Position numbers and translations under genes: made by a program. A stretch of 48,461 nucleotides of DNA from contig DATKKN010000005.1 in NCBI GenBank assembly GCA_035542895.1, forward strand, positions 1 to 48,461, read 5' to 3'. The notes beneath the pieces were generated by a model that saw nothing but the letters and a program-made list of their open reading frames with translations, did no database searches and was not told where the DNA came from. This stretch comes from Methanomicrobiales archaeon. Its GTDB lineage: Archaea; Halobacteriota; Methanomicrobia; Methanomicrobiales; JACTUA01. This document shows positions 4,022 through 30,213 of this stretch, in pieces; within the stretch, counting starts at the first letter, position 1, and the number at the start of each line of letters is the position of its first letter.

Positions 4022-4573
4022 TCAGGTCCTGGTTTTGAGATACTGGGTCGCCACGACCATGCCCGATATCACCATGATACTCACCGCGACCGTGGGGAAT
4101 TCGGGAACCGGAACGGCGGCAGGGGTGTTCATCCCGAAGGTGATGCCCGGGATCTCTCCGGTGGCAGCGGTGTAGGCGACGGAATAGCCGGGATCCGAAT
4201 AACCGTCCGGCGGGGCGGAAGGCTGGACCACGGGATAACCGGCATTGGCGTCCTCCCGCTCAACGACCGTGGCGTACCAGGTCTGGCCATCCGGGGGGGT
4301 GGGAAGGAGCACCGAGAACCCATTCCTCCCGTTTTCGGTCGAGAAGGAGGTGAAGTCCTGTTCCGACCTGATTTCCCCGGTGCCAGCGGGTGCGGTCATC
4401 ACCTTCAGGTGGAGCGTAATCCCTCCCACGCATGGCTCGAAGCTGTCCCTTGCCCCGTTCCCGCTGGTATCGATATAGGCACAGCCGGTCATCGTGGTTG
4501 CAGCCGCGACCCCGGCCAGCGAGGCAAGTGCCAGGATGAAGAAAATGCTGGCTACGGTCCTACCTGCATGCAT
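4022..4573 (-). CDS. Secreted SdrD-B/Cna-B-like fold protein with a C-terminal PEF-CTERM sorting signal (predicted archaeosortase substrate)
   Basis: Signal peptide 'MHAGRTVASIFFILALASLAGVAAA' from the ATG at 4573; the ORF track starts at a TTG at 4618. 'YIDTSGNGARDSFEPCVGGITLHLK' is typical of SdrD B-like repeats. The C-terminus 'PVPEFPTVAVSIMVISGMVVATQYLKTRT' has a PEF motif, a TM helix and a basic tail. Confidence 0.8.
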   Translation of the reverse strand: MHAGRTVASIFFILALASLAGVAAATTMTGCAYIDTSGNGARDSFEPCVGGITLHLKVMTAPAGTGEIRSEQDFTSFSTENGRNGFSVLLPTPPDGQTWYATVVEREDANAGYPVVQPSAPPDGYSDPGYSVAYTAATGEIPGITFGMNTPAAVPVPEFPTVAVSIMVISGMVVATQYLKTRT

Positions 4574-4633
4574 CGGGAAAATACCCCCACCCCACTCTGC
4601 GATTCTTGATTTCAACAATGAAATGGCTTTCGA

Positions 4634-4643
4634 TTATATAAAG
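4634..4643 (-). promoter_or_regulatory. Candidate archaeal TATA box for the PEF-CTERM gene
   Basis: The minus-strand reading is TTTATATAAT, 61-70 nt upstream of the ATG at 4573, within an AT-rich divergent intergenic region. Confidence 0.3.
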
Positions 4644-5067
4644 GATTCGGTGAATAATTATTTTTAAATTATCTTTAAAGATTTAAATTTTTTCGACAGG
4701 AATCATTATATATGATGACTCGTATTGGATTTGAAATGAGATGGTACTCTTAAAGATTTCTCTTACCGGTTTCCCGAATTCTTTTTCTTATTTGGTGATT
4801 CCCTGTTTCCATCGCCACGAAACTGTTATATTTCACTCCTTGAATACGAACATCCCCCTCGTGGAGTGGAAATGGGGGGTGATCCTGCCCCGGGGGTGTC
4901 CCTGATCCTGCGGCACCCCCCCAAATCTTCGCCGGAGCACCCCCGGAGGAAACCGGATCCCAGTGAATACCTTCCCGGGCGACGGGAATGCGTACGGGAA
5001 GCGGGTCATTTTAAGGCGGCGATTCCCATGATAATATAAAGGTTTTCTCCATTTTATCAACGATGAC

Positions 5068-5075
5068 TATTTATA
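5068..5075 (+). promoter_or_regulatory. Candidate archaeal TATA box for the archaeosortase gene
   Basis: TATTTATA lies 55-62 nt upstream of the ATG at 5130 in an AT-rich spacer. Confidence 0.3.
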
Positions 5076-5129
5076 GGAAAGAATAAAACAATATCTTTTT
5101 TAAGGCATACTATCAAGAGATTGTGTTTA

Positions 5130-6056
5130 ATGCAAACCGAATTTCCGGGGCCGGTTAACCCCAGGAGAATCGCGCTCGGATGGTTCCTCGTGGTTCTCTT
5201 TGCAACGGGCCTCTTTCTCCTGTTCACCCCCGAAACCTACATGAAGATCGATGCCATCTTCATCTGGGTCCTCACCTGCCTGGTCCTCCTCTACTTCTCG
5301 ACCCGAAAGATCACCCGGCTCACCCCGGGGAGAAAGATCCTGGTCATCGGTGCAGGGTTCCTCCTCTGTCTCCTGAGCATCCTCCGGATACCCCTCGGGG
5401 TCGGTCATACGCTCTATTCCATGGGCGATTTCACGGTTTTTCTCTCGGGGCTCGGCCTGATCCTCTTCGGGGCCCTGGGGTTCGGATCCTTCGTCATGCC
5501 CCTGCTCCTGCCCCTGGTGGCCGTCGAGGGATTCCAGGTCTATGATCTCTTCATCCGGCACATCGACTGGCTCACGGCACCCCTGGTCGCGGTGGACATC
5601 GGCATCGTATCCTCCCTCCTCCACCTTACCGGCATCCCGGTAGGCATCCAGGGGCAGGTGATCTCCTTTGTCTCCTCCACGGGGCTCCCCGTGTATCTTT
5701 CCATCGAAGGGGACTGCACGGGGCTCTGGTCCCTGGGCACCTTCACCATGGCGGTCATCATCGTGGCCGTGAGTTTTCCCCGGGCCTTCGATCTGCGGGG
5801 CATCCTGTACATTCTCCTCGGGTTCCTGGGAACGTACGCTGCGAATATCCTCCGGATCTACGTGATCATCCTGACCGGTTATTACTACGGTCTCAGCAAT
5901 GTGATGGAGCATACCCACATCCATATCGGCTGGCTCATCTTCACCGCATGGATGGTGTTCTTCTGGTACCTCTTCTTTGTGCGCCACGTCGGGATCTCCT
6001 TCACCTCGAAGGATGGCCGCCGGATTGCCGGCACCCGGGACCGGAAGGCCGGGTAA
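5130..6056 (+). CDS. Archaeosortase (exosortase/archaeosortase family transpeptidase), probably the PEF-CTERM-specific type
   Basis: Polytopic membrane protein carrying the family's signature positions: 'IEGDCTGLWSLG' (conserved Cys), 'ANILRIYVIILTG' (conserved Arg) and 'HTHIHIGWLIFTAW'. It is divergently adjacent to a PEF-CTERM protein. ATG at 5130; a TTG at 5121 is also possible. Confidence 0.85.
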   Translation: MQTEFPGPVNPRRIALGWFLVVLFATGLFLLFTPETYMKIDAIFIWVLTCLVLLYFSTRKITRLTPGRKILVIGAGFLLCLLSILRIPLGVGHTLYSMGDFTVFLSGLGLILFGALGFGSFVMPLLLPLVAVEGFQVYDLFIRHIDWLTAPLVAVDIGIVSSLLHLTGIPVGIQGQVISFVSSTGLPVYLSIEGDCTGLWSLGTFTMAVIIVAVSFPRAFDLRGILYILLGFLGTYAANILRIYVIILTGYYYGLSNVMEHTHIHIGWLIFTAWMVFFWYLFFVRHVGISFTSKDGRRIAGTRDRKAG

Positions 6057-6184
6057 CCTCCCGCTTATCCCGGTGAAAGGTGACCGGGGGTCCTCAGGGG
6101 CCCCCTTCTCTCCGGTCCCAGAATCATTTTTATGGTGAAACGGGCAACAGATGGTACGCGGGGGATCAGCGGCAACCCGGGGGC

Positions 6185-7333
6185 ATGAGGGTGGCATTTC
6201 AGTTTTTCGCGTGGTTCAGGAACGCTCCGCCCTACCAGAAGGCGATCCTGCTCGCCATCCTCATCGGTTTTGCCACCATGATCACCTTTGTCCTTCTCGA
6301 ATACCAGGAGGACCGGTTCACCTCCCTGTACATTTACCCGGATTCGTACACGCATTCCCAGGGGAGGGGCAACACCTCCTTCCTGTACGGGATCCGGTCC
6401 TACGAGCGGGACCGCACGGCATATACCCTTCAGTTCTTCGTGAACGACCGGCTGGTCGGGCAGAAGGACTTCGACCTGGATCCCGGCAAGGTTATCGAGG
6501 AGAGATCGGCCATCGATATCTCGAACGATTCCCTCCCCACGAAGATACAGCTCGTCCTCAGTTCGGGTGCCGGGAGCTACGAGGTGCATTACTGGATCCT
6601 GGGGACGGCCCCGGTCGCCGCCTTCTCGGCGAAACCGACCCAGGGCAAGGAACCCCTGACCGTGACCTTTTATGATAATTCCACGAACTCTCCGTCCTCG
6701 TGGGCCTGGAACTTCGGTGACGGGACGACGAGCACCCTCCGGAACCCTGTCCATACCTTCACAAACGGCAGCTACTCGGTGAGCCTGGTGGCATCGAACT
6801 CGGGCGGGGAAGGCAGCGAGCGCAAGACCAACTTCATCACGGTACTCCCCAATGTAACCATCTCCGCCGTGTCCCAGGTGAGCCAGGTCCAGAGGGTCCT
6901 TCTCAGGGAAACGCTCACGGTCCGGGACCGGCAGAGTATCCTCGATATCATCGCCCTCGATTACTACCGGGGTCCGTACGCAAACGACCTGGTCGCCTAT
7001 AGCAGGGAGGTGTTCAGCCTGGAGAATATCTCCAACGCCGAACCGGAGCCGGGGTACGAGTATCTCCTGGTCAAGGTACTCGTCAAGGACCGGCAGGGAA
7101 CGACCCCCATATTCGTGGCCCAGGCAAGCTTCAGGACCTGCGTTAAGGGTACGAACCGGTGTTCGGATGCCGAGCGGGCATTCATCACCCTGCCCACCTT
7201 CGAGGACAAGGTCATCAGCCTGGATGATTCCTCGAGCGGCTGGATGGTCTTCATTGTCCCGGTATCCGAAGTCATTGACCTTGCCTACTATGACTCATCC
7301 GGACTGCCGGCGGGGTACATCCAGATCAGATAA
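6185..7333 (+). CDS. Membrane-anchored surface protein: DUF1616 C-terminal-like region, PKD domain and DUF4352-like domain
   Basis: ATG at 6185, then one TM ('AILLAILIGFATMITFVLL'). 'FTSLYIYPDSY...YTLQFFVNDRLV' matches the extracellular part of archaeal DUF1616. PKD motif: 'PLTVTFYDNSTNSPSSWAWNFGDGTTSTLRNPVHTFTNGSYSVSLVASN'. The 'YEYLLVKVLVKDRQG' segment is DUF4352-like. Confidence 0.7.
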   Translation: MRVAFQFFAWFRNAPPYQKAILLAILIGFATMITFVLLEYQEDRFTSLYIYPDSYTHSQGRGNTSFLYGIRSYERDRTAYTLQFFVNDRLVGQKDFDLDPGKVIEERSAIDISNDSLPTKIQLVLSSGAGSYEVHYWILGTAPVAAFSAKPTQGKEPLTVTFYDNSTNSPSSWAWNFGDGTTSTLRNPVHTFTNGSYSVSLVASNSGGEGSERKTNFITVLPNVTISAVSQVSQVQRVLLRETLTVRDRQSILDIIALDYYRGPYANDLVAYSREVFSLENISNAEPEPGYEYLLVKVLVKDRQGTTPIFVAQASFRTCVKGTNRCSDAERAFITLPTFEDKVISLDDSSSGWMVFIVPVSEVIDLAYYDSSGLPAGYIQIR

Positions 7334-7485: not shown

Positions 7486-8946
7486 TTACCGGTCCGGGTG
7501 CCTCCGGGTAATCCCGACCAGGTCCCTCACGATGTCCTTGCTTACGTACCCCGTGGCGTACGCGAGGGCAGGGAAGAGGATGATGGCGATGCCGATTCCC
7601 AGGAGGGGATGCGGCCTGAGGACCATGAGGAGGAGAACGGTGACAATGAAGCAACCGGCGAGCCTCCCGATCCGGTGCAGGATGACCTTCAGGGGGGTGA
7701 GGTCCTTGACGAGGGCGATGGTAAGGAGGGTGGAGATGATGAAGAGGAGGGTGTTCGAGATATAGGCCCCGAGGAACCCGTTCCCGAATCCCAGGGACCG
7801 GGACAGATCGATGAGATAGACGGTCAGGACGAAGAAGAGCGGGAGCATGGCGAGGGGAATCACCGCGATGATGGCATAGTCCTTCGCATCCGTGGCGCGA
7901 GAGAGGTTCAGGTTCGCGATGAAGACCTGGATGAAAATGAACAGGTACCCCACGGCCATGATGGGAAAGTACGTCGAGGCGTCCAGGTACGCCCGGGAGA
8001 AGAGTACCCGGACCAGGTATTCGGAATAGAGGGAGAGGGTGATGAAGATGAGGACCATGAGGGCGAACAGGGCCCGCGTGACATCGGCAAGCCCGCCCCG
8101 CCGGTAGATCCGTTCCGGGTCCGCCGAGGTGGCCTCGGGGACGGAGAGGAGGGTCATCGTGCCCATGGCAAAGAAGAAGAACGACCCCAGGGTGAGGGAC
8201 ACGTCAAAGTACCCCTGCCAGACGATGCCGAGGTCATGGCTGATGACCATCTTGATGAGGGCCTGGCCGAAGGTGTTCAGGGACCCGAAGATGAACAGGG
8301 CGATGCCGAAGGCAAAGATCTGCCGGGAGGGCCTGCGTATCGAGAGGATCGGGAGGTACTGGCGCCGGTATGTTCCTGAGAGGGCGAGGATGGCAAGGGG
8401 TATCACGTTCGCGAGGACAAAACCGATGAGGATGATCTCGAAGGACTGCATCCCTGCGAGGAGCAGGCCGGCGATGATGACGAGCCTTGCCACCGAGGGC
8501 AGCGCCATGGTGATCCCCGGGAAGGCGTACTGCCTGAGCCCCGTGTAGAGGGCCTCGAAATCGGCAAGGATGGTGAGGGAGAAGAGGGAAAAGATGATGA
8601 CCGCGTAGAACAGGTTCATGCGATCGAGGGGGATATTCAGGTAGGAAAAGAAGGGCTCCCGGAAGATGAAAAGCAGGGCCGAGAGGACGAGCCCGATGAG
8701 CATGCTCATGACCATCGAAAACCCGAAATAGTGCCTTCCCTCCTCGGAATGAGCGAGGATCTGCGGGAAATTCAGGGTGGTGACCAGCTGGAACACGCCG
8801 GGGAGTGTCAGGGCAAGCAGGGTGATGAGCCCGTACTCGTACGGGGTAATGGTATTTGCAAGCACGATCTTGGTCAGGACTCCTGACCCGCGCTGGAGAA
8901 GGACGAAAAAGATGAAGAGTCCGGAGTAAAACGTCAGCGTCTTCAT
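7486..8946 (-). CDS. MOP-superfamily polysaccharide/oligosaccharide flippase (Wzx/RfbX-like)
   Basis: About 486 aa with about 14 predicted TM helices. The N-terminus 'MKTLTFYSGLFIFFVLLQRGSGVLTKIVLAN' is typical of 'polysaccharide biosynthesis protein' flippases. I chose the ATG at 8946 over the ATG at 8988. Confidence 0.75.
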   Translation of the reverse strand: MKTLTFYSGLFIFFVLLQRGSGVLTKIVLANTITPYEYGLITLLALTLPGVFQLVTTLNFPQILAHSEEGRHYFGFSMVMSMLIGLVLSALLFIFREPFFSYLNIPLDRMNLFYAVIIFSLFSLTILADFEALYTGLRQYAFPGITMALPSVARLVIIAGLLLAGMQSFEIILIGFVLANVIPLAILALSGTYRRQYLPILSIRRPSRQIFAFGIALFIFGSLNTFGQALIKMVISHDLGIVWQGYFDVSLTLGSFFFFAMGTMTLLSVPEATSADPERIYRRGGLADVTRALFALMVLIFITLSLYSEYLVRVLFSRAYLDASTYFPIMAVGYLFIFIQVFIANLNLSRATDAKDYAIIAVIPLAMLPLFFVLTVYLIDLSRSLGFGNGFLGAYISNTLLFIISTLLTIALVKDLTPLKVILHRIGRLAGCFIVTVLLLMVLRPHPLLGIGIAIILFPALAYATGYVSKDIVRDLVGITRRHPDR

Positions 8947-9330
8947 GGAAGCTCCCTGTCGCCGGTCGTCAGCCGCGCGATCTGACACCGGCTGTCATGG
9001 TGTTGTATCTGTCTTCACTATCCGGGTCCCATCACCTTTCTGAATCATATCACATAAACCCATACCGTCCTCATTTCAGCATGGATCCACGCCCCCCGGC
9101 ACCCCATTCGAATATGCCCTTCCAGGTGCTCCGGATCCCCGCAGAAAACCTCCCTGCGGGCCGGAAGGGTGGTTCACTGCCCCCGAGCGTATGGGTAGAG
9201 ATATGTATTTCCTGTTCCCACTATAGGCAGGTGACCCGGGGGAACCGGAGAGCGACCGGACGGTTTCACGGTACCGAATCAAGGAACGAATCCGGGACCG
9301 GACCCTCTCAACGGAGAATCCCTGGTATCT

Positions 9331-10344
9331 ATGGCATTCGAGCTCCGGAGCGCAGGAGAACCCGACAGGGAGGCATGGGAAAAGGCGGTGGAGGCCTCTC
9401 CCCATGGCACCATCTTCCATTCCTGGAGATGGCTGAAGACCCTGGAGAGGCATGTGGACATGCGGTTGTATCCCCTCCTCGCTTACCAGGGGAGCCAGCT
9501 CGTTGCCCTCTACCCGTTCTTTGTCCATACCTACGGCCCCTTCCGGGTGGCCGATTCCCCTGCATCCGACGGCTTCATGCTCTACCTCGGCCCGGTCATC
9601 CCCGGCTACGAGCAGATGAAGCAGGAGCGGAGGGAACACGTCTTCCTCTCCCTCCAGGAAAAGGTGGATGATTTCCTGATCTCGGAGCTTGGCTGCAAAC
9701 TGATCCGGGTCCGCACCTCGCCCTCCCTCCCCGATTCGAGGCCCCTGATCTGGAGGCAGTACAGGGTCAAGCCCGCGTACACCTACCGGATCGACCTCGC
9801 GGGCGGCATTGACCGGGTATGGGAGCAGTTCGACGGGAAACTGAAGGCCGACATCAGGCGTTCCCAGAAGATGGGGGTCACGGTCCGGGAGGGAGGGCCC
9901 GCGGACCTCCTCGAGGCTCATGATACCCTGTACCGGAGGTTCCGGGAGAAGGGCCTGAAGAAGCGGGAGTGCAGGGAGTTCCTGGCCGACATCTACCGCG
10001 AGTTCCAGCCGTCCGTGAAGGTCTTTGTCGCGGAATACCAGGGGAAGGTCGTGGGGAGCGTGGTCGCCCTCCTTCACAAGGATATCCTCCGTTTCTGGTT
10101 CGGGACCCCGAAGAGCGGGCTGAAGGGGATCTATCCCAACAACCTGGTCCAGTGGGAGGGGATCCGCTGGGCCGCGGCAAACGGTCTCCGGATCTGCGAG
10201 AACATGGACACCGGGGACGATGTGACCCGGGCGCCCTTCAAGGCCAAGTTCAACGCCGGGATCGAGCTCTGGTTCAAGGCGGATAAGTATGCGTCCAACT
10301 TCTACAAGCTCGGACACTTCTTCATCAACCCCGACCAGTTCTGA
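9331..10344 (+). CDS. FemAB-like GNAT-fold acyl/aminoacyl transferase (paralog 1)
   Basis: 'SPHGTIFHSWRWLKTLERH', 'LYRRFREKGL' and 'VKVFVAEYQGKVVGSVVAL' are shared with the paralog at 22682..23737. The architecture matches FemAB-related proteins found in exosortase/EPS loci. Confidence 0.7.
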   Translation: MAFELRSAGEPDREAWEKAVEASPHGTIFHSWRWLKTLERHVDMRLYPLLAYQGSQLVALYPFFVHTYGPFRVADSPASDGFMLYLGPVIPGYEQMKQERREHVFLSLQEKVDDFLISELGCKLIRVRTSPSLPDSRPLIWRQYRVKPAYTYRIDLAGGIDRVWEQFDGKLKADIRRSQKMGVTVREGGPADLLEAHDTLYRRFREKGLKKRECREFLADIYREFQPSVKVFVAEYQGKVVGSVVALLHKDILRFWFGTPKSGLKGIYPNNLVQWEGIRWAAANGLRICENMDTGDDVTRAPFKAKFNAGIELWFKADKYASNFYKLGHFFINPDQF

Positions 10345-10615
10345 GGGGTTCCCGTCTCCACGGGTGAGGCCGTCGGAGGTATCCCGGCGGGGATTTGATG
10401 CGGGGGAAGGCTCGGGCCGGACCGCACGGGTCCCTTCCCGGGGCGGAACCTCCCCCCGCCCGGGGGTTGAGACCCCGCGGAGATCGATCCGGTGCGGGGG
10501 CCGGAACCCGCCCCTGCCCCGTGAAAGGACCGCCCGCACCGGCCATGTCGCCGGGACCAGCCTGAAACCCGGGAAGGGAGAGGACGAGATAGAGGAAAGG
10601 AGAACCATCGGGCCC

Positions 10616-22059: not shown

Positions 22060-22590
22060 TTGGTGGTCTGTACGGTCGACGAACCCGAACCCTGCCAGTT
22101 TGTTGAGGACGAAGTTGCCTCGTTCGCTGAACTGGACAAGCGCACCGACCCGGTCCGGATCTGCTGGAGATGGCTGAAGCATCACGGCACGTTTCTGAGA
22201 TACCGGTACTCGGCCATTGATTCGCTGCTCCGCGGGATTCCGGCCGGTAAACCGGCGTCAGCAGGGCATAAGGGGATCGGAACCAAAGACTTAAACCTGA
22301 ACCCCGGGGAACTGGTCGAGGTCAGGTCCGAGGAGGAAATCCGGTCAACCCTTGACCGGAGGAACCGGTACCGGGGCCTTATCTTCATGCCCGCGATGTG
22401 GCAGTTCTGCGGGAAGCGCTTCAGGGTCTACAAGAAGGTGGTCGACATCAAGCTCGAGACCACGGGCCACATGAGAAGGATCATGTCCCCGACCGTCTTT
22501 CTCGAGGGGGTTACCTGTAACCGGTGCGATCGCGAATGTTACTGCTTCTGGAAGGAGGCATGGCTGAAGAGGGTGCCCGACCAGGCATGA
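22060..22590 (+). CDS. Conserved hypothetical protein with a C-terminal Cys cluster
   Basis: Coding-like GC3 usage. 'LNPGELVEVRSEEEIRSTLDRRNRYRGLIFMPAMWQFCGKRFRVYKKV...FLEGVTCNRCDRECYCFWKEAWLKRV' looks like a conserved small domain that I cannot name. Only TTG 22060 or GTG 22063 are available as starts. Confidence 0.5.
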   Translation: MVVCTVDEPEPCQFVEDEVASFAELDKRTDPVRICWRWLKHHGTFLRYRYSAIDSLLRGIPAGKPASAGHKGIGTKDLNLNPGELVEVRSEEEIRSTLDRRNRYRGLIFMPAMWQFCGKRFRVYKKVVDIKLETTGHMRRIMSPTVFLEGVTCNRCDRECYCFWKEAWLKRVPDQA

Positions 22591-22681: not shown

Positions 22682-23737
22682 TCAAACCAGGGACCCGATC
22701 CTCTCGGACAGGGGTTTCACGATACCCATGTATCCCCTCATCGCGCAGCTCCCGAGGAAACCTGCCTTGCGCGATACGTACCGGGTGCGCAGGTCCAGGT
22801 TCGGGATCTTGGCCGAGTAGTACCGGGAGAGGCGCTGGTTTCCGGCGGCGCCCAGGATCGAATACCAGGTGTAGCCCCGCGCGGCGGCATCCTTCAGGGT
22901 CTCCCAGTTCAGGAGCTCATTGGGCGACGGCGAGATGGCCTGGGACGGCTTCGGGTTCCCAATCCAGCTGGTCATCTCGTCCCGCGTGAGCTCCAGTTCA
23001 ATGGAGCCGGTCACGATCCTCCCCCCGTACTCGACCGCGAAGACCTTGATGCTCTCGGGGAATTCCCGGAGGAGCTCGGTCAGATACGGTTCCGGGACGT
23101 TGACCGACTTGCCCTGTTCCCGGTATCTCTGGACGAGGAGGTCGTATATAGCCCTGAGCTCCTGGACCCCCCCGGTCCGGATGGACATCCCTATCTTGAG
23201 GGCCTTCCTGAGATCGGTCCGCTGGGTTCCCCGGAGGTCCTTCCACAGCTGGTCCGGGCCTTCCCGGATGTCTGCGATATAATCGAACATGGTATCGTTG
23301 GTATATCCCATCCACCTGAAGGTACGGACATCGATCATGGAGGGAGAATGGGCTATCAGGCTGTAATCGGGGCGCAGGGCCGTGGTGATATACTCCATGG
23401 CCACCCTCTGCATTTCCATCCGGTTCTGCTCCCTCCTCGAGGATTTCTGCCGTGTCCCTGCCCCGAGGACCGGCCCGAGGAACCTGATGGCCAGGCGCGG
23501 CGGGGGCGAGAACAGCAGCCTCATGAGGGGGACCGTCCTGAGAAAGACCGGGAAGATCCCGGTCATTTCCTCCCCCTCGGTGGAGACGAGCGGAAACAAA
23601 CGGGCGCCGCCGGCGTACTTCTCGGCGATCCTCAGCCACTTCCACCGGTGGAAGACCGTCCCGTCGGGTGAGTTCGCGTTCAGGTCATCCCATTCCCCGG
23701 CATCCGACTCCGTTGCAAGGGCGATTCTAGCTCCCAT
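22682..23737 (-). CDS. FemAB-like GNAT-fold acyl/aminoacyl transferase (paralog 2); last gene of the 5-gene operon
   Basis: 'SPDGTVFHRWKWLRIAEKY', 'LVQRYREQGK' and 'IKVFAVEYGGRIVTGSIEL' parallel the protein at 9331..10344. Its start overlaps the upstream gene by 11 nt. Confidence 0.7.
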   Translation of the reverse strand: MGARIALATESDAGEWDDLNANSPDGTVFHRWKWLRIAEKYAGGARLFPLVSTEGEEMTGIFPVFLRTVPLMRLLFSPPPRLAIRFLGPVLGAGTRQKSSRREQNRMEMQRVAMEYITTALRPDYSLIAHSPSMIDVRTFRWMGYTNDTMFDYIADIREGPDQLWKDLRGTQRTDLRKALKIGMSIRTGGVQELRAIYDLLVQRYREQGKSVNVPEPYLTELLREFPESIKVFAVEYGGRIVTGSIELELTRDEMTSWIGNPKPSQAISPSPNELLNWETLKDAAARGYTWYSILGAAGNQRLSRYYSAKIPNLDLRTRYVSRKAGFLGSCAMRGYMGIVKPLSERIGSLV

Positions 23738-25379
23738 GGTATCCCCCGGAAAAGACGATGGTCATTTCCATAGCCCGGTCACCGCCGGCCGGTTGCACGT
23801 CGATGGTGCCCGGGCTCCGGGCAACGGGGCTCCCGCCCAGGACCTCCTTCAGCTCCATCCCTTCCGGGACATGGATCCGGACCGGCTGAAGGGCACCCCG
23901 GATCATCCGGATCCCGAGCCGGTCTCCCTCGAGGTGGCACTCGGTCCTCGCCCCGTTCCTCGCCACCCACCAGCGGGCGATATCCCTCGCGCTCGCGATC
24001 CAGGCGTTCTCCTTCCCCGCGCGCGAGAGGATCTGCCGGTACGCATCGCCCCAGCCCGGGTATTCGTGGGGGTTGAACACGGCATGGTGCCAGAGGAGGG
24101 TCAGGACACCCCCGCACCCCCGCACCGTCCCTGCAATCTTCACCCACTCCTCCTGCCAGCGGGGATTCCTGAGAAGGGCGATATCCTCGATGACGAGAGG
24201 CAGCTCGAGCAGGTTCAATGCCCGCCCTTCGGCAGGAAGGAACGGGGAGAAGGGAAAGCAGGTTCCCCACCGGAACCCGATCCGGTCATTGAACCCGAGG
24301 GTCGTGTCGCAGAGGAGTCCCAGCCCCTCGTGATGGAGCCAGGTCTCGGGGATCCTGAGGTTCAGGTTATGCTGCCTCGTGGTGTACACCGGCTCGCCGA
24401 GGACCTTCTCGAGGGATTTCTTCTCTCCCTCGAGGGTCGGGAGGTCATCATAGGAATTGAACGAGCCATGGAGGCCGACGTCCCATCCCGATGCGGAGAG
24501 CCTCCGGATCAGGCTGCTCAGCTTCGGATCGTCCCACCGGTACCGCCTGCCGAGGTGCCTCCACGAGGAGCTCTCCAGGGGCCGCACCCTCGCGGTTTCA
24601 TGGAGGAAGAAGAGGGATGACCGTGCCCCCAGCCCGTCCTCGAGAGACATAAGGTCATCAAAGGCCCAGTACGGCTCCTTCCCGGAGAGCCGGTCGAGGA
24701 GAGAGAGCCCCTGGAAATACAGCCCCCGGACATCCCCCCGGGCGGCGAGCTTGAGCGGGGTGGTGATCCACTGGTAGGTCTTCTTCACCTCGTCGACGTC
24801 ATGGGTGAGGCAGACCGCGAACGCCCTGCCCTGCGGCCAGAACGGCAGGGACACGAGGGGGACACGGAGTTTCCCGTACCCCGCAAGGATCAACCTGAAG
24901 AGGAGATCCTCGAGGAGATCCGCGACCGGAAGCGACGCCATGCCGCGCTTCAGCCCCTCGTCAGGGCCTTTCCAGACCGGTTCCAGCCGGCCGGAGAGAA
25001 GGGCCCCGATCTCGCCGAAGGGATCGAACCCGATGGAGATCCCGGCCCCGGTTCCGGTGATGCACGGGAACCGGTCCCCGTTCCCGCCCTCCCACCAGCC
25101 CAGGATCCTCCCGTCGTCCCCGGAATCAGAGGGTGGTGCGAACAGCGGGATCTTCCCTTCGCTGACCCTGAGGTATCCTGGAATCCCCGGAGCCCCGTCC
25201 CCGGGATGGTCCTGCGCGGCCCTGATGGTGAACCCGGAGTCCGGATCCCCCCCGCACTTCAGGGTGACCCCGGAGTGGCCCGAGGGATCGCTCTTCACCG
25301 ATAACCCGTACTTCCCGAAGAAGTGGCGCAGGCCGAATCCGGTCCGGGCGTCCCCCGACGGGTAAAGGCAGGTGAGCAC
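23727..25379 (-). CDS. Polysaccharide deacetylase (NodB/CE4-like) with an N-terminal domain of about 180 aa of unknown function
   Basis: 'FAVCLTHDVDEV' is an Asp-Asp type motif 1, and 'WDVGLHGSFNSY' is the metal-His motif. The GTG start at 25379 lies 3 nt after the stop of the upstream gene. Confidence 0.7.
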   Translation of the reverse strand: MLTCLYPSGDARTGFGLRHFFGKYGLSVKSDPSGHSGVTLKCGGDPDSGFTIRAAQDHPGDGAPGIPGYLRVSEGKIPLFAPPSDSGDDGRILGWWEGGNGDRFPCITGTGAGISIGFDPFGEIGALLSGRLEPVWKGPDEGLKRGMASLPVADLLEDLLFRLILAGYGKLRVPLVSLPFWPQGRAFAVCLTHDVDEVKKTYQWITTPLKLAARGDVRGLYFQGLSLLDRLSGKEPYWAFDDLMSLEDGLGARSSLFFLHETARVRPLESSSWRHLGRRYRWDDPKLSSLIRRLSASGWDVGLHGSFNSYDDLPTLEGEKKSLEKVLGEPVYTTRQHNLNLRIPETWLHHEGLGLLCDTTLGFNDRIGFRWGTCFPFSPFLPAEGRALNLLELPLVIEDIALLRNPRWQEEWVKIAGTVRGCGGVLTLLWHHAVFNPHEYPGWGDAYRQILSRAGKENAWIASARDIARWWVARNGARTECHLEGDRLGIRMIRGALQPVRIHVPEGMELKEVLGGSPVARSPGTIDVQPAGGDRAMEMTIVFSGGYHGS

Positions 25380-25382
25380 CCT

Positions 25383-26477
25383 TCAAACCCCTCCATTCCC
25401 GGTCTCGCCACGGAGGCTTCCGGGGTAATTCTCGATGAACCGCGTCATCCAGGAGGTGACATCGATCTTCTCCGCAAGGAGCCTTTCCCTCCTTGCGAGC
25501 CAGGTCTCCCTCGAGCCCTCTTCCCCGAGGATCGCGAGGGCCTTTGCAAAGGCCTCTTCCTGGGTCGAAAAGAAATAGAGGAGCTGGTACCGGTCCCGCA
25601 GTTCCAGGAAGTTCCCGCTCCCGGCGCCCGTCGCCTCTCCCGACCGGGTCGCCTCGATGTGGATGGCGGGGGTCCCGAGGACCGCGGCCTCGGCCGCCAT
25701 CGTCCCGCCCTCGCCGATATAGAGCCGCGCGAAGGCGAGGAGGGAATGGATCTGTTCCGGGGAAATCCGGATCCGGTATTTCTCGAGGTCGGGGTGGAGC
25801 GGCCGTTCCGAGGAGATGAGCACCTTCCCGAAACGCTCGAGGGACCGGACGAACTCCAGCTCCGATCCCGTCCTGATTCCCCTGAGGGAGGTGTCATGGA
25901 TCGCGCCCCAGGAGATGAACCTGAGAACGACGTATTCACCGGGGGAGAGGCCCATCCCGCCGAGGGATGAGGGGTCGGGGGTGAAATGACGGGGGTGCAG
26001 GTAGGCGAGTTCCTTGTACCCGCGGTACGTGACATGCTTCCCCGGGTCGACGGGCTCCCGGAAGCACGACGGGGTGACGATGGTGGTTGCAAACGGAAAG
26101 GTGAGCAGGCTCGCCACCCGCACTCCCTCGGTATCCGTGAAGATGACCGAGGGTTTCCTCATCAGTGCGGCCACGTGGGCGATGTAGGGATTATGGATCC
26201 CGATCAGGATGTCCGGGTTAAACCCCCTCGCGATCCCCCAGAGTTTTGCATCAATCTGGAAGAGGGAGAATGCCTTTTTCAGGACGCTTTTCTGGATGGC
26301 CCCCCGGTTGATGTACGGGAGCCCGTACTTATCGAGAAGGGCGAGGGTGACCTCCTTGTCCCGGGCCGTGATGAGGATCTCGTGCCCCCGGGATTGCATC
26401 TCCCCGATGAAACCCCTGAAGAAATGCACATGCGCCGGGTGGGCGACATCCACGAGCAGTTTCACGGGCTCACGCAC
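25383..26477 (-). CDS. DUF354-family protein (GT-B / UDP-GlcNAc 2-epimerase-like fold; putative glycosyltransferase)
   Basis: 'LLVDVAHPAHVHFFRGFIGEMQSRGHEILITARDKEVTLALLDKYGLPY' is the characteristic DUF354 N-terminus. About 364 aa. Overlaps the upstream PIG-L gene by 8 nt. Confidence 0.75.
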   Translation of the reverse strand: MREPVKLLVDVAHPAHVHFFRGFIGEMQSRGHEILITARDKEVTLALLDKYGLPYINRGAIQKSVLKKAFSLFQIDAKLWGIARGFNPDILIGIHNPYIAHVAALMRKPSVIFTDTEGVRVASLLTFPFATTIVTPSCFREPVDPGKHVTYRGYKELAYLHPRHFTPDPSSLGGMGLSPGEYVVLRFISWGAIHDTSLRGIRTGSELEFVRSLERFGKVLISSERPLHPDLEKYRIRISPEQIHSLLAFARLYIGEGGTMAAEAAVLGTPAIHIEATRSGEATGAGSGNFLELRDRYQLLYFFSTQEEAFAKALAILGEEGSRETWLARRERLLAEKIDVTSWMTRFIENYPGSLRGETGNGGV

Positions 26478-27102
26478 CCAGCCTCATCACCCATTTGATG
26501 ACCTCGAAGGCCTCGGCATACTTCTCCTCGATCTGGACGCCCCGGGTCAGGGCAAGGCCCCGGATGAAGTCGCTGCTCAGGTAGGCGCGGTACCTCTGGG
26601 TCCGGTAACATTTCAGCGCGTCGATCTTCTTCTGCACCTGGTGCTCCTTCAGGGAGATGAAGGCAAGGGTATGAAAGGTAATGTTGTTCCAGGGCTGTTC
26701 GTACCCGAGGATGGTGCACTGCTTGAAGGCCCGGAGGGTCTCCTCCCTGGTCGTTTTATGGTCCTGGTGGGTATCGTACGAGGAGGGCGTGAAGACGATT
26801 TCGGGCTGGATCTGCGAGCGGAGGGAGATGAGCGTGTCGAGGATCGACTGCCTGAGCCTCGGGAACTCCCGGACCTCGTACTCGAAGAGGATCGGCTCGG
26901 TGATCCCGAGGATCCTCGTTGCCTCCCTGACCTCCCTTTTCAGGATATCGCAGGGATACTCGGGCGGTATCGATTTCTCGCACGAGGACAGGGCCACGTA
27001 CGAGACCTCGTCCCCCTCCTCGATGAACCGGGCCACCGAGGCGCCGCAGCCGAGTTCGCCGTCGTCGGTATGGGGACTGATGACCAGGATTTTACGCGCC
27101 AT
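26470..27102 (-). CDS. PIG-L / LmbE-family N-acetylglucosaminyl de-N-acetylase
   Basis: Zinc-site motifs 'ISPHTDDGELGCG' and 'YDTHQDHK'. 210 aa. Overlaps the upstream gene by 11 nt. Confidence 0.85.
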   Translation of the reverse strand: MARKILVISPHTDDGELGCGASVARFIEEGDEVSYVALSSCEKSIPPEYPCDILKREVREATRILGITEPILFEYEVREFPRLRQSILDTLISLRSQIQPEIVFTPSSYDTHQDHKTTREETLRAFKQCTILGYEQPWNNITFHTLAFISLKEHQVQKKIDALKCYRTQRYRAYLSSDFIRGLALTRGVQIEEKYAEAFEVIKWVMRLGA

Positions 27103-28672
27103 CGCCTGCCTCCAGGGCCTTCATGGCCTGATGGATCCTCCGGGTGCTTTCGGGAGATCCGGACCCGCACGGGTACAGGATATCTCCCTCCATGAGCGGG
27201 AACTGCCCTTCCCCGGGATCGATCCCTGCGGTTTCCGCCGCGGTTTTCCAGCTTTCCCTGATGTGTTCGGGACCGCAGGCGAGGAAGAGATCGAGCATCG
27301 AGGGGGTTATCGTGAAAACCTTCTTCGCCATGAGTTCCTGGACCGACGAGTTCAGGAGCCGCCCCTCCAGGCGCTGTATGGCCTTCCCTTCCCCGCCTCC
27401 GGCCCGGAGATCCCTGATCTGGCGTTCCAGGCCGGTCCGGTAGTCCCGTATCCGGTCAGCAAGGGACGGATCGGTGACGTCCTCCTCCCGCAGCGGGAAG
27501 GTTCGCGTCAGCTCGCGGAGCGCCCGCCGGTGGGCGATGCCCAGGTAATAATCCGCCGATCTCCAGGCGAGGGTGACGGGTTCGTGAAAACCCATCGCCC
27601 GCGAGATTGCCCCGGCGAGTTTCCCGTACCTGAGCCCTCCACCGGTTCCCGAGATAAAGAGGCTTGTCCCGAGCCCCTCTGAAAAGATGATATTCCGGGC
27701 TACCGCGTTCGGGCTCATCCGGGGATACAGGCCATCGAGATCGATGAGCCCCGGTCCCCCGGGGAACCGGTGTTCTCTCCCGCACACGGGGCACGTGCCG
27801 CCCGGTGGAGAGGATGGAGGGGCCGCGAGACGCACCTTCCCGCCGCACTGGCACTCGTACCAGAACGGGATATCATCTTCGGTTACGGGGGCGATCCCGG
27901 GTCCCGCGTGGGCGAGCAGGGCATTGAACCGGGCGTTATATTCCCCGAGGCCGGTGAGGACCCGGGCGGATGCCTCCCTGAAAAGGCCGGCCTTCTGGAC
28001 ATCGGTATACCGGAAGAAGTGGAGGGAAAGCCCCAGGATCCCGGAACAGATCCCTGCAAAGGCAAAGGCGTTCAGATCCGAAAATGTACGGGCGCGGGAA
28101 TAGCTTGACTCGAGGATTCTGGTCAGGAGACTCATCCGGTCCCTGAATACCTCCGGGTCGATCCTGAGAATGCTCATGCTGCTCAGGTACATCGCTTCTA
28201 TTTTCCCGATTTCCGCCTGGAAACGTTCCTCCGGGGGCTTTCCGAGGGTATGAAAACATTTCCACCGGTCCCGGTCCGGGATCCTGAACCCGATGTTTTC
28301 GCTCCCCTGCTTGTTGAAGGCGGGAACCTGGTTCTGGGCCAGGTAGGACGCGGTGGAGAGGTTATAGTCCGCGAACCCGAAGGCCGCGACGGCGTCCGAC
28401 CCGAGGGAGCGGAGCTGCCTCCCGAGGAGATCGAGGAGAAAGGCCTTCTTCCAGACACCGGGATAGGGGAGAAAATTCGGCTGGTGCCCGGACTCGAGGA
28501 CGATGGTCCGCTCCGTGACCGGGTTCCCTTCCGTCTCCGGTATGCCGGCACCGGTGCTGAAGGACCGGGAAATACCAAGGATCCCTTCAAGGTTCTTCAC
28601 CTGGCGGGGATCCAGGATATGGTAATTGCTGAGACCCGGAATCAGATCGGCCATTCGCATACGGTCCGCCAT
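27092..28672 (-). CDS. BshC-like protein (putative amino-acid:aminosugar ligase) with an inserted CxC...CxxC zinc ribbon
   Basis: 'VLESGHQPNFLPYPGVWKKAFLL...AAFGFADYNL' parallels B. subtilis BshC 'VVGGQQAGLLTGPLYTIHKIISI...IFWVAGEDHDL'. 'SPNAVARNIIFSEGLGTSLFISGTGGGLRYGKL' parallels BshC '[33 protein letters not shown]'. Zinc ribbon: 'ECQCGGKVRLAAPPSSPPGGTCPVCG'. The comparison was made from memory by eye, not with an HMM. Confidence 0.6.
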   Translation of the reverse strand: MADRMRMADLIPGLSNYHILDPRQVKNLEGILGISRSFSTGAGIPETEGNPVTERTIVLESGHQPNFLPYPGVWKKAFLLDLLGRQLRSLGSDAVAAFGFADYNLSTASYLAQNQVPAFNKQGSENIGFRIPDRDRWKCFHTLGKPPEERFQAEIGKIEAMYLSSMSILRIDPEVFRDRMSLLTRILESSYSRARTFSDLNAFAFAGICSGILGLSLHFFRYTDVQKAGLFREASARVLTGLGEYNARFNALLAHAGPGIAPVTEDDIPFWYECQCGGKVRLAAPPSSPPGGTCPVCGREHRFPGGPGLIDLDGLYPRMSPNAVARNIIFSEGLGTSLFISGTGGGLRYGKLAGAISRAMGFHEPVTLAWRSADYYLGIAHRRALRELTRTFPLREEDVTDPSLADRIRDYRTGLERQIRDLRAGGGEGKAIQRLEGRLLNSSVQELMAKKVFTITPSMLDLFLACGPEHIRESWKTAAETAGIDPGEGQFPLMEGDILYPCGSGSPESTRRIHQAMKALEAGDGA

Positions 28673-28795
28673 ACCCCCGTTTTCCCGGAAAGAGGAAGAA
28701 ACATGCTATATGTCGTATGGAAATCGTCCGTCCCAGGGTCGGTCGTATCCCGGACGCGTATTCCGGCGATCATGGTTGCTCCAAAGCACCGGGCC

Positions 28796-29191
28796 CTATT
28801 TTTCGGAGCCCCGGGGTTCCCCGAGGTGTTCCCGGTTCTCAGGCAGCTGCGGGCTTCCCGCCTGCCTCCGGAAGATCTTGAGGTCAACCCACTGGCGCAA
28901 CCGGCTCCCCCGGTATCCGGCCTGGATCATCCAGGCGAGCGCGGCAAGGGCGGTCACGATGGCGATGGTGAAGAGGATATTCGTCGCCGTGACATCGATG
29001 CCGAGGAAGATATCGGCAAAGAGAACCGACGTCGTTACCGAAACGATGGAAAGGACGAGAGAGAGGGCGATGCGTTCGAACCTCCTGAGCCTGTCGCCTG
29101 TCGGGTAGAGGGCCCAGGTGAGGGCATACCCGGGGACGAAGAGAACGAGAATGTACCCCGCGATGGTTCGGAACAGGGTAACCGGGTCCAT
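28796..29191 (-). CDS. Small membrane protein corresponding to the N-terminal (TM) part of DUF1616
   Basis: 'ILVLFVPGYALTWALYP...ERIALSLVLSIVSV' matches the conserved DUF1616 N-terminus. There are three or four TM helices. ATG at 29191; GTG at 29200 is possible. Confidence 0.6.
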   Translation of the reverse strand: MDPVTLFRTIAGYILVLFVPGYALTWALYPTGDRLRRFERIALSLVLSIVSVTTSVLFADIFLGIDVTATNILFTIAIVTALAALAWMIQAGYRGSRLRQWVDLKIFRRQAGSPQLPENREHLGEPRGSEK

Positions 29192-29241
29192 AGATACCAC
29201 GATATTTTAATCCCCGGAAGGATTAATTATTCCGATTGGCC

Positions 29242-30213
29242 TCACCCGGGTATCAGGAAACCCGCGATGCAGAAGATACCCGTGAGCCCGAACATGGCGA
29301 GGGTCGCCTGGCGCTCGGTGAGGGGGAGGATCGAGGGGAGCACCCACTTCAGGGTGTACCGGTTCGGCACCTCGAGGGTCCCGTCCGGCCGTACCCTCCC
29401 GAACTTTTCGAAGGGCACCCGCTTCATGTTCAGCTTCCAGTACACCCAGAGCAGGAAGTTCACCGTGTGGGGGATGAGCATCACGAAACCGGAAACGATG
29501 AAGCCTTCCACCACGCAGGTCGCGCCGATGGCCGCTCCCACGGAGAGCGCCCCGATATTTCCCCAGAAGACCTGCGCGGGGTACTTCTCGAAGAGGAAGT
29601 ACCCGGCGAGGGCCCCCGCCAGGCAGAGGATGAAGAGCACCTTGAGGATATCCCCTGAGAACCAGGACTTTGCGAGGAGCGTGGCGAGGATCATGAGGGA
29701 GAGGCCGGGCGCGAGGCCGTTGAACCCGGAGTGCATGTTGACGAGGTTCGCAACCACCGGGACAAAGGTCGGGATCAGGAGCTGGAGGTACAGGATGTTC
29801 AGGTCGACCGGGCCGAGGAAGGGAATCAGGAGGGGAACCACCGGCACAAAGGGGATGAGCGGGTAGGAGCAGTAGTAGAGGAGGATCAGCTTGGCGGTCC
29901 TCCCGATATCGATCATGTCGTCAACAAGCCCGAACAGGGCAAAGAGCATGATGACCATGATCATCGCGTGGTTCTCGGGCCGGATGTGTTTTGAGTAAAA
30001 GAGTGAGATGATCGACATGGAGAAGAGGGCGACGAGGAGGAGGATCAGCCCCCCGTTTATGGCGACCTCGGGCCTGTCGGGTTTGTACATGTCCCGGGCA
30101 ACGAAGCCCCCCGACTTCATCGCCCGGATGCTCCGGGGCATCACGAGGAGCATGAGCCCGAAGGGCATGAGGATAAAGAACAGGAACATGAAGATAAGCG
30201 GGAGATACTCCAT
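29242..30213 (-). CDS. GT4-family polyprenyl-phosphate HexNAc-1-phosphate transferase (AglH/WecA/MraY-like)
   Basis: 'LFGLVDDMIDIG' (DDxxD) and 'VANLVNMHSGFNGLAPG' (NxxNxxDGxDGL-type) motifs in a polytopic protein. ATG at 30213; GTG at 30219 is the alternative. Confidence 0.8.
   Translation of the reverse strand: MEYLPLIFMFLFFILMPFGLMLLVMPRSIRAMKSGGFVARDMYKPDRPEVAINGGLILLLVALFSMSIISLFYSKHIRPENHAMIMVIMLFALFGLVDDMIDIGRTAKLILLYYCSYPLIPFVPVVPLLIPFLGPVDLNILYLQLLIPTFVPVVANLVNMHSGFNGLAPGLSLMILATLLAKSWFSGDILKVLFILCLAGALAGYFLFEKYPAQVFWGNIGALSVGAAIGATCVVEGFIVSGFVMLIPHTVNFLLWVYWKLNMKRVPFEKFGRVRPDGTLEVPNRYTLKWVLPSILPLTERQATLAMFGLTGIFCIAGFLIPG

Follow-up and report, generated by a model that had tools for sequence, protein, structure and literature searches.

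We analyzed a 48,461-nucleotide stretch of DNA from a Methanomicrobiales archaeon (JACTUA01; assembly GCA_035542895.1, contig DATKKN010000005.1, positions 1–48,461), referred to here as the window, which encodes an archaeosortase and a protein with a PEF-CTERM sorting signal together with a cassette of predicted amino-sugar enzymes. The contig is ~60% GC and its encoded proteins are non-acidic; the latter, with the assignment to Methanomicrobiales, led us to reject a haloarchaeal origin. Genes were called from third-position GC and open reading frame (ORF) length, and their products were then scanned against Pfam and NCBIfam; tRNA and Rfam scans of the window were both empty. An earlier reading of the same DNA (the original prediction) had listed a set of sorting and glycan genes and had taken them for an archaeal counterpart of bacterial exosortase loci. 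Every gene that it named, including its non-obvious call of a BshC-like protein, was located at 4022–30219. The features are listed below (aa, amino acids; TM, transmembrane; HexNAc-1-P, N-acetylhexosamine-1-phosphate; AF2, AlphaFold2).

2421–3428, minus: BacA/UppP polyprenyl-diphosphate phosphatase homologue (PF02673, 141.9 bits), just outside the region of interest
4022–4618, minus: PEF-CTERM substrate protein, 198-aa ORF, C-terminus VPEFPTVAVSIMVISGMVVATQYLKTRT
5121–6056, plus: archaeosortase (PF09721, 77.8 bits; TIGR04178, 46 bits)
6080–7333, plus: single-pass membrane protein with PKD and DUF4352 domains (PKD_4, 54.7 bits)
7486–8988, minus: Wzx-like (MOP/Polysacc_synt) flippase with 13 TM segments (PF01943, 29.3 bits versus 28.2)
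9331–10344, plus: FemAB/FemX-like aminoacyl-transferase, paralogue 1 (PF13480, 48.4; PF02388, 28.5)
10289–12676, plus: LVIVD-repeat beta-propeller surface protein (PF08309, 165 bits)
12732–14090, minus: PaaK/F390-synthetase-type adenylate-forming ligase (PaaK structure 2y27, E = 1.7e-28)
14222–18277, minus: 1351-aa giant polytopic membrane protein (GT-C fold)
18463–21714, minus: 1083-aa secreted or surface protein with an LVIVD propeller and He_PIG/Big_9/cadherin-like Ig domains (Pfam)
22060–22590, plus: 176-aa Cys-rich protein (no family match)
22682–23737, minus: FemAB/FemX-like aminoacyl-transferase, paralogue 2 (PF13480, 43.9)
23727–25379, minus: 550-aa VimE-like (CE4-superfamily) sugar de-N-acetylase (NF053580, 70 bits)
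25383–26477, minus: DUF354 protein (PF04007, 56 bits)
26470–27102, minus: PIG-L family de-N-acetylase, BshB1/MshB-like (PF02585, 71 bits)
27092–28672, minus: 526-aa BshC-fold putative ligase (AF2 model and Foldseek)
28796–29200, minus: DUF1616 N-terminal half, 3-TM (PF07760, 53.8 bits)
29242–30219, minus: polyprenyl-phosphate HexNAc-1-P transferase family protein of the MraY/WecA/AglH type (PF00953, 85.8 bits), called GT4 for short below

The last seven genes form a minus-strand operon transcribed in the order GT4, DUF1616, 526-aa protein, PIG-L, DUF354, VimE-like, FemAB-like 2. Successive genes are first separated by 41 and 123 bp, then overlap by 11 and 8 bp, lie 3 bp apart and overlap again by 11 bp, this last being the overlap of the start of FemAB-like 2, the final gene, with the upstream stop.

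Sortase, sorting signal and predicted amino-sugar enzymes

The archaeosortase (288 aa from the start annotated by NCBI) belongs to the exosortase/archaeosortase superfamily, with scores well above the cut-offs of 25.7 bits for PF09721 and 23 for TIGR04178. It has nine TM segments, and its residues C199, R245 and H266 do not vary across 21 sequences. Against the archaeosortase C (ArtC) model TIGR03762 it reaches 43.8 bits, under the 100-bit cut-off, so it is not an archaeosortase C; its sequence places it in a separate, unclassified and rare clade, with 23 clusters among 5.8 billion proteins and, at E ≤ 1e-30, 17 representatives among 1.84 billion, followed by a sharp drop in score.

The PEF-CTERM protein is encoded 500 bp from the archaeosortase gene. 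Its translation probably starts at Met17 of the ORF, and it combines an N-terminal signal-like helix with a C-terminal tripartite signal of PEFPT, TM helix and KTRT. Its score against TIGR03024 is 12 bits (E = 0.2), short of the cut-off of 23, and Pfam gave no match at E ≤ 10 (the PEF-CTERM domain being TIGR03024/PF26596). The same C-terminal signal recurs in 16 neighbouring ORFs of related loci, and beside ArtC genes. Near-identical tails adjoin the archaeosortase in nine related loci (L011, L012, L016, L017, L021, L022 and L028–L030; loci are designated by L numbers throughout).

The 526-aa protein of the operon belongs to a family of at least 137 homologue clusters. Pfam and NCBIfam searches at E ≤ 10, and PDB searches with the single sequence and a 47-sequence profile, matched its zinc ribbon only. 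Across the 47 aligned members an SGHQPN motif is invariant, and the family has a CxC...CxxC zinc ribbon. When an AF2 model (mean predicted local distance difference test, pLDDT, 93.7) was compared to the PDB with Foldseek, the best match was Bacillus subtilis BshC (4wbd, E = 3e-14, TM-score 0.57, over the full length), followed by a class-I lysyl-tRNA synthetase (LysRS-I, 1irx) and, lower down, MshC. The modeled fold thus contains a class-I aminoacyl-tRNA-synthetase-like Rossmann core, and we regard the protein as a putative BshC-fold, class-I aminoacyl-tRNA-synthetase-like ligase. It does not match the BshC family by sequence; at 13% identity, the kinship with BshC is visible in structure alone.

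The neighbouring PIG-L protein is a member of its family (71 bits against a PF02585 cut-off of 28.2), and is not a BshB1 equivalog because it scores 68.5 bits against TIGR04001, where the cut-off is 182. The 550-aa protein is homologous to the VimE model NF053580 over 264 residues (70.1 bits, E = 1.3e-19), a score that indicates homology and not membership, the cut-off being 440. It has no above-threshold Pfam match, PF01522 (Polysacc_deac_1) being absent; its Geoglobus homologue matches PF01522 weakly (E = 5e-4). The label CE4 rests mainly on the VimE model, since a profile of the family gave a marginal CE4 match in the PDB (polysaccharide deacetylase 3rxz, E = 1e-3).

Both FemAB-like proteins fall within FemABX, by PF02388 scores of 28.5 and 24.9 (cut-off 24) and by homology to solved FemX structures: a 31-sequence profile matched FemX (1xe4, E = 2e-11) and FmhB (6snr, lipid II:glycine glycyltransferase, E = 5e-10), with aminoacyl-tRNA-dependent peptide synthases at E = 1e-5. 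They are predicted to be FemX-like aminoacyl-transferases, with putative use of tRNA. The DUF354 protein is presumed to be a GT-B-type glycosyltransferase or an epimerase-like enzyme.

DUF1616 occurs twice, in halves. The 3-TM half (28796–29200) lies in the operon, and a domain resembling the C-terminal half (6080–6600) lies beside the sortase, as the N-terminal domain (~residues 37–175) of the protein at 6080–7333, ahead of its PKD and DUF4352 domains. This domain is kept beside the archaeosortase in L003, L015, L017, L023–L027, L030, L032 and L118; the L030 counterpart (13668–14093) matches DUF1616 positions 150–281. In P0055, a BshC-like protein and DUF1616 are fused. Because the split halves flank both the ligase and the sortase, and because of this fusion, the arrangement suggests that DUF1616 may physically bridge the two.

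Conservation of the linkage across archaea

To view the cluster from the sortase, we took one genome per species, giving 24 loci from Methanoculleus, Methanoregula, Methanoregulaceae, Methanogenium cariaci JCM 10550, other Methanomicrobiales, Altiarchaeota and Hydrothermarchaeota, and compared them to all window proteins by tblastn. Sixteen of the 24 carry cluster genes no more than 10 kb from the sortase. Among the eight others, seven have a contig end within ~2 kb of the sortase; the eighth, L011, carries the whole cassette 18–30 kb from the sortase on the same 110-kb contig (L011/L117), which is syntenic with the window end to end, from the rhodanese-APC-EamA-GT4 genes through the FemAB-like genes.

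The linked genes change order between loci. In L014, a single strand carries overlapping BshC-like, PIG-L, DUF354, VimE-like, FemAB-like, FemAB-like, Wzx and archaeosortase genes, while co-directional and overlapping genes in L018 run from the archaeosortase through GT4, DUF1616, BshC-like, PIG-L, DUF354 and FemAB-like to Wzx; the L018 contig continues (L009) with GT2 genes, a GT-C protein, another FemAB-like protein and a He_PIG protein. FemAB-like genes are also found in L015, L017, L019, L020, L023, L031 and L032, with VimE-like, DUF354, PIG-L and GT-C genes in subsets of these. In the Altiarchaeota and Hydrothermarchaeota, GT4 adjoins the sortase in L024–L027, L029, L030 and L034, some of which add DUF1616, PIG-L, BshC-like or FemAB-like genes.

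Several of these loci have features of their own. In the Altiarchaeota locus L118 (GCA_042584505.1), genes for a UDP-sugar dehydrogenase, a DegT aminotransferase and a Hexapep acetyltransferase (Wbp-like; 128–3997) stand immediately beside the archaeosortase, and the locus continues with GT4, PIG-L, DUF354, BshC-like, VimE-like, FemAB-like, Hexapep, ATP-grasp, PHP and three GT2 genes. Two archaeosortase paralogues (L019 and L020) lie 27 kb apart on the Methanoregulaceae contig CAWHIE010000004.1, each with its own FemAB-like, LVIVD and GT-C genes. Many genes appear frameshifted in these nanopore-type metagenome-assembled genomes (L019/L020) and in the M. cariaci draft (L031).

To view the cluster from the cassette as well, we collected 80 metagenome loci around the 526-aa protein and counted neighbours in the 40 that span at least 8 kb. 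The most frequent neighbours were PIG-L (39 of 40), DUF354 (30), the VimE-like (29) and FemAB-like (27) proteins and DUF1616 (24), followed by GT4 (19), the PaaK-like ligase (12), the Wzx-like flippase (7) and the GT-C protein (6). The original prediction had emphasized the FemAB-like, CE4 and ligase genes; the best-conserved core is instead GT4-DUF1616-BshC-like-PIG-L.

Sortases found from the cassette side are of another kind: those of L115, L074, L091, L096, L107 and L113 score 136–170 bits against the ArtC cut-off of 100, compared to ~40–45 for the window clade. The sortase in the complete genome of Geoglobus ahangari is likewise a bona fide archaeosortase C. There, one strand carries in succession GT4, DUF1616, VanZ, DUF1616, BshC-like, PIG-L, ArtC, a 260-aa protein, PHP, ATP-grasp, DUF354, a 348-aa PEF-CTERM protein, VimE-like, two FemAB-like proteins and GT1. 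The ArtC gene and the PIG-L stop codon overlap here, with BacA immediately upstream. Every cassette-side ArtC gene, that of Geoglobus included, is flanked by PEF-CTERM ORFs. Two distinct sortase clades therefore share the cassette and the PEF-CTERM signal, since ArtC and the window clade each adjoin both.

The archaeosortase C/PEF-CTERM sorting system itself (TIGR03762, TIGR03024) was reportedly described by Haft, Payne and Selengut in 2012. It resembles the window in its polytopic exosortase-family enzyme with conserved Cys, Arg and His residues and in an adjacent substrate with PEF, TM and basic tail, and ArtC enzymes stand in the same cassette in Geoglobus and metagenome loci. The window differs in that its enzyme belongs to the separate small clade and in that its substrate misses the TIGR03024 cut-off.

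PEF-CTERM proteins of ~320 aa without a Pfam domain, often with a C..CGND motif right before PEF, are encoded in L003 (8941–9891), L028 (8854–9828), L030 (8846–9817), L074 (6008–7012), L091 (10118–11053), L096 (1632–2660), L113 (9657–10673), L115 (16689–17735) and L116 (20718–21536). They are homologous over their full length between Methanomicrobiales-type, Altiarchaeota, hot-spring and Geoglobus loci, and in Methanogenium sp. S4BF the gene follows Wzx. This family looks like a dedicated substrate of both sortase clades; the window does not carry it and has the unrelated 198-aa PEF-CTERM protein instead. A second PEF-CTERM protein, of ~270 aa with a DUF4350/OST48 N-terminal-like domain, directly follows ArtC in L074 (7983–8795) and also occurs in L077, L083, L086 and L095 (hot-spring metagenome loci).

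Sequence constraint is uneven within the cassette. GT4 and PIG-L are 76–88% identical between Methanomicrobiales loci, where the BshC-like, VimE-like, FemAB-like and sortase proteins are 34–66% identical; the window GT4 is 76–87% identical to other Methanomicrobiales copies, and the window PIG-L shows 52–87% identity among cassette loci. This unevenness hints that the first two steps, GT4 and PIG-L, are housekeeping.

The association between archaeosortase and cluster is far beyond chance, and the linkage extends over at least four archaeal lineages (Methanomicrobiales, Archaeoglobales, Altiarchaeota and Hydrothermarchaeota). A loose accumulation of cell-envelope genes in one island, with no direct coupling of sortase to sugar, might be read from the window itself, where 16 kb with surface-protein genes separates the sortase from the 7-gene operon, the two are on different strands, and a pilus locus lies nearby. 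This explanation is very improbable and effectively refuted by the recurrence of the linkage in four lineages and two sortase clades, in changing gene orders and as a true operon fusion; a sortase within 10 kb would be expected by chance at roughly 2% (assuming 1–3 sortase genes per ~2000-gene genome). The claim of a functional module as opposed to a chance neighbourhood is thus borne out by co-conservation with the archaeosortase across phyla.

Flippase-like, GT-C and surface proteins and alternative explanations

The Wzx-like flippase has homologues next to the archaeosortase in L011, L013, L014, L018, L023, L031 and L032. The PaaK-type ligase (NF045666, 156 bits, under the cut-off), which the original prediction had counted among the signature companions, occurs in one of the 24 archaeosortase loci (L019) and in 12 of the 40 cassette loci, with ATP-grasp enzymes elsewhere; it is a variable accessory.

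The giant protein begins with a predicted GT-C-fold glycosyltransferase domain of ~460 aa, followed by an external part of ~900 aa with a Pro/Thr-rich tail. An AF2 model of residues 1–650 had a mean pLDDT of 65 (70–90 in the TM part), and the top Foldseek matches of this moderate-confidence model were PglB/STT3/AglB (E = 8.5e-6, TM-score ~0.45). The protein has no WWD motif and no STT3 Pfam match. Because the motif is absent we call it a GT-C protein; the name of a true oligosaccharyltransferase was not adopted, on the same ground together with the moderate model and the missing Pfam match. The family is rare (19 clusters) and adjoins the archaeosortase or the cassette in L011, L009, L015, L017, L019, L020, L023, L032 and L116; a Methanoperedens homologue (L007) has no cassette within reach. 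The 176-aa protein, which has no Pfam or NCBIfam family match, travels with the GT-C protein and has homologues in L011 (45%), L039 and L042.

Among the surface proteins, the 1083-aa protein ends in a C-terminal TM helix with no PEF motif, and in L003, L009, L011, L023 and L032 the archaeosortase is flanked by giants of the He_PIG type. The LVIVD protein (10289–12676) is conserved in L019/L020 only. The first ~110 codons of its ORF (10289–10620) are Arg/Ser/Pro-rich and overlap the end of FemAB-like 1; they are probably untranslated, with the real start near the signal-like MLPVLLLVLVL.

The original prediction had described the window as having the same accessory set as bacterial exosortase A (XrtA/EpsH)/PEP-CTERM exopolysaccharide (EPS) loci, which were reportedly described by Haft in 2006 (TIGR03109, TIGR03019 and companions). 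Both do contain an exosortase-family enzyme, a tripartite-signal substrate, FemAB-like proteins, a sugar deacetylase, an adenylate-forming ligase, a flippase and a priming transferase, although the ligase of the window, unlike that of the bacterial loci, is PaaK-type and non-conserved. The likeness holds at the superfamily level only, because no protein reaches the curated family cut-offs. The FemAB-like proteins score 51 and 61.7 bits against TIGR03019 (XrtA/PEP-CTERM-associated FemAB), where 260.35 is required, even though this model is still the best curated match of both, ahead of FemX NF047883 (21 bits). The archaeosortase scores 36.7 bits against the XrtA model (cut-off 208). No window protein matched the exosortase-associated deacetylase or AMP-ligase families of NCBIfam at E ≤ 0.01, nor did the VimE-like deacetylase at E ≤ 10; we take TIGR03006 and TIGR03098 to be the models of the dedicated XrtA-system deacetylase and the exosortase-A acyl-CoA ligase. 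By these scores the FemAB-like and CE4 proteins fall outside the exosortase-associated groups to which they had been likened. Conversely, we know of no counterpart of the GT4/PIG-L/BshC-like/DUF1616 core in the description of the bacterial PEP-CTERM loci.

An EPS or capsule locus organised like the bacterial EpsH/PEP-CTERM loci, whose secreted and heavily N-acylated polymer would associate with PEF-CTERM proteins, is accordingly improbable. The Wzx-like flippase, the priming transferase and the GT-C enzyme (a possible polymerase or ligase) would suit it, as would the extra GT2 and pyruvyl-transferase genes of L009 and L118 and the rank of TIGR03019 as best curated match of both FemAB-like proteins. 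These have to be set against the wide margins by which all the bacterial companion families are missed and against the absence from the window of recognizable Wzy, Wzz/Wzc or Wza-type genes for export and chain length; moreover, the minimal Altiarchaeota set (GT4-DUF1616-PIG-L-BshC-like plus archaeosortase) has too few glycosyltransferases for a repeat-unit polymer. Of the predicted polymer, an N-acylated or aminoacylated amino sugar fits the enzyme set, whereas the polymeric, exopolysaccharide part found no support.

The main rival to the acceptor pathway proposed below is that sortase and cassette share a substrate. The cassette glycan would be put on PEF-CTERM or S-layer proteins by N- or O-glycosylation, through an oligosaccharyltransferase-like GT-C protein or AglB, while the archaeosortase would independently cleave the tail and join the protein to a lipid of the membrane, in the way proposed for ArtA; the clustering would reflect that all these genes mature the same surface proteins. 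AglH/WecA-type GT4 enzymes usually prime archaeal N-glycans, and the GT-C domain has oligosaccharyltransferases as its best structural matches. The cassette is also found with no sortase close by, the conservation of GT4 and PIG-L looks housekeeping, and genes for large He_PIG/LVIVD surface proteins are interspersed among those of the cluster. We nevertheless judge this explanation rather unlikely. The GT-C protein lacks the WWD motif, is far rarer than the cassette and is missing from the operons of Geoglobus and Altiarchaeota, and a shared substrate leaves unexplained both the conserved partnership of amine-exposing and aminoacylating enzymes with two sortase clades and the translational coupling of the sortase gene to PIG-L in Geoglobus.

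Elsewhere in the window, a type IV pilus-like assembly locus (43380–47499) encodes a PKD protein, two T2SSF/PilC-like membrane proteins (one with Big_1) and a KaiC-like ATPase fragment. In L018, homologues of the pilus genes (63–83% identity) sit immediately upstream of the archaeosortase gene, so that the pilus genes may belong loosely to the same surface island. At 33902–34142, between a rhodanese gene (32937–33830, minus) and a Lon_C-domain gene (34171–35556, minus), a perfect intergenic tandem repeat of 50 bp × 3.0 (100% matches) is followed by an overlapping repeat of 45 bp × 2.5; neither has an Rfam match.

A possible aminoacyl-sugar acceptor and its precedents

Because a VimE/VimA-type pair lies beside the sortase together with a PIG-L/BshC-fold pair, a primer and a flippase, we propose an aminoacyl-sugar acceptor. 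It is quite possible, if still somewhat doubtful, that the PEF-CTERM/archaeosortase anchoring system is physically and functionally coupled to a lipid-linked aminoacyl amino-sugar pathway whose product is the acceptor of the sortase. In this pathway the PF00953 transferase, to judge by its family, would put HexNAc-1-P on polyprenyl or dolichyl phosphate; PIG-L would strip the N-acetyl group, and the BshC-fold ligase would load an amino acid on the freed amine, following the logic of bacillithiol and mycothiol. DUF354 may attach one more sugar, the VimE-like deacetylase together with the pair of FemX-like transferases would expose and aminoacylate another amine, and the PaaK-like or an ATP-grasp ligase might attach variable acyl groups. 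Wzx would flip the product, and the GT-C enzyme could transfer or extend it outside the membrane. The archaeosortase (Cys199/Arg245/His266) would then cleave the PEF-CTERM tail, and the free alpha-amine of the aminoacyl sugar would resolve the acyl-enzyme, so that the protein ends up joined to a glycolipid or glycan through an amide. The BacA/UppP homologue at 2421–3428 is a possible partner in recycling the carrier lipid.

The closest working precedent is the Wbp/Vim pathway with PorU in Porphyromonas. In P. gingivalis, PorU, the sortase of the T9SS (type IX secretion system), amide-links the C-termini of cargo proteins to a 2-N-seryl-3-N-acetylglucuronamide linking sugar (PMC7468200). VimE (CE4) is proposed to strip the 2-N-acetyl group of this sugar, and VimA, a TIGR03019 match, adds serine, the Tannerella forsythia enzyme adding glycine (PMC7468200). 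Veith et al. 2020 speculated that exosortase loci, through their VimA-like proteins, produce an acceptor of a similar kind (PMC7468200), and their account of VimE and VimA makes the view that the roles of the exosortase companions are unresolved a dated one. Like that system, the window has a VimE homologue and two TIGR03019-like proteins beside a sortase-type enzyme, and the Altiarchaeota locus L118 shares Wbp-like genes with the Porphyromonas pathway; none of WbpA/B/E/D (2,3-diacetamido uronic acid) is among the annotated genes of the 48-kb window. PorU, however, is a C25-type T9SS peptidase unrelated to the membrane archaeosortase. The window adds to the Wbp/Vim logic the PF00953 primer and the amine-loading arm of PIG-L and BshC-like protein, and an archaeal lipid-linked glycan would serve as the anchor in place of lipopolysaccharide.

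Two further systems supply parts of the scheme. Bacillithiol and mycothiol synthesis (BshA-BshB-BshC; MshA-MshB-MshC) proceeds from N-acetylglucosamine (GlcNAc) to glucosamine (GlcN) to aminoacyl-GlcN. Its order of GlcNAc transfer, PIG-L-family de-N-acetylation and action of a class-I aminoacyl-tRNA-synthetase-like ligase on the freed amine is shared by the window, where, unlike in the soluble thiol route, the first enzyme is a membrane polyprenyl-phosphate HexNAc-1-P transferase; the product would for this reason be lipid-linked and not a soluble thiol. Sortase A of Staphylococcus aureus makes use of the Gly5 amine that FemXAB build on lipid II. In that system, too, FemX-type aminoacyl-tRNA-dependent transferases build a peptide amine on an MraY-primed polyprenyl-diphosphate sugar, and a Cys transpeptidase anchors proteins with a C-terminal motif, TM segment and basic tail; the window differs in having no murein or pseudomurein and an unrelated sortase family.

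Several observations weigh against an aminoacyl-sugar acceptor. The proposal draws throughout on gene context and homology, from which its chemistry is deduced. Identities of 76–88% for GT4 and PIG-L versus 43–66% for the sortase suggest a housekeeping glycoconjugate. The cassette is also commoner than the sortase, an archaeosortase lying within 10 kb in eight of the 40 cassette loci (detected with a hidden Markov model of the sortase clade, at low scores); this is a lower bound because sortase and cassette are 21 kb apart in the window itself. In Ca. Alkanophaga, only VanZ, DUF1616, BshC-like and PIG-L genes stand together, and no archaeosortase or GT4 lies in the 18-kb locus, which reaches 6.7 kb upstream and 10 kb downstream from the query; the core therefore has a role independent of the sortase. 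The metagenome locus L003–L006, the sole clear negative among the archaeosortase loci, has a PEF-CTERM protein and a He_PIG giant with no cassette within 6–10 kb. To our knowledge, the ligase activity of BshC itself has never been reconstituted. Finally, the inferred acceptor of haloarchaeal ArtA is a phospholipid and not a sugar.

The acceptor of exosortases and of most archaeosortases has been an open question for roughly two decades, and that of exosortases is still called an “unidentified compound” (PMC7468200). In the literature searched, which did not cover Haft 2012, archaeosortases were not combined with FemAB, VimA, a linking sugar, BshC or PIG-L; PMC7468200 and PMC10117864 mention archaeosortases incidentally only, and an embedding in an amino-sugar cassette was not described. 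The sorting-system family is thus known, while the archaeal cassette linkage, the sortase clade and the concrete acceptor hypothesis are apparently new.

The locus family offers a concrete acceptor candidate with its gene set (PF00953 primer, PIG-L, BshC-fold ligase, VimE-like and FemX-like proteins), a dedicated ~320-aa PEF-CTERM substrate family, and cultured hosts in Geoglobus ahangari, Methanogenium cariaci and Methanogenium sp. S4BF. It gives fold and context to three families without an assigned function (the 526-aa family, DUF1616 and DUF354), defines a new archaeosortase clade, and extends the association of FemAB, deacetylase and sortase from Bacteria to Archaea. With more reserve than for the pathway itself, we suggest that ArtC-type enzymes attach proteins to an aminoacyl-hexosamine “linking sugar” built on a carrier lipid, and not to a phospholipid. 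Just as tentatively, the GT4/PIG-L/BshC-like/FemX-like cassette that would make this sugar may be older and more widespread than the sortases. If this is true, sortase with FemXAB in Gram-positive bacteria, PorU with VimA/VimE in Bacteroidota, exosortase with TIGR03019 in Proteobacteria and archaeal ArtC would represent one recurrent solution, an aminoacylated sugar amine as acceptor for C-terminal protein anchoring, and genomics would have identified the long-sought acceptor of exosortases and archaeosortases.

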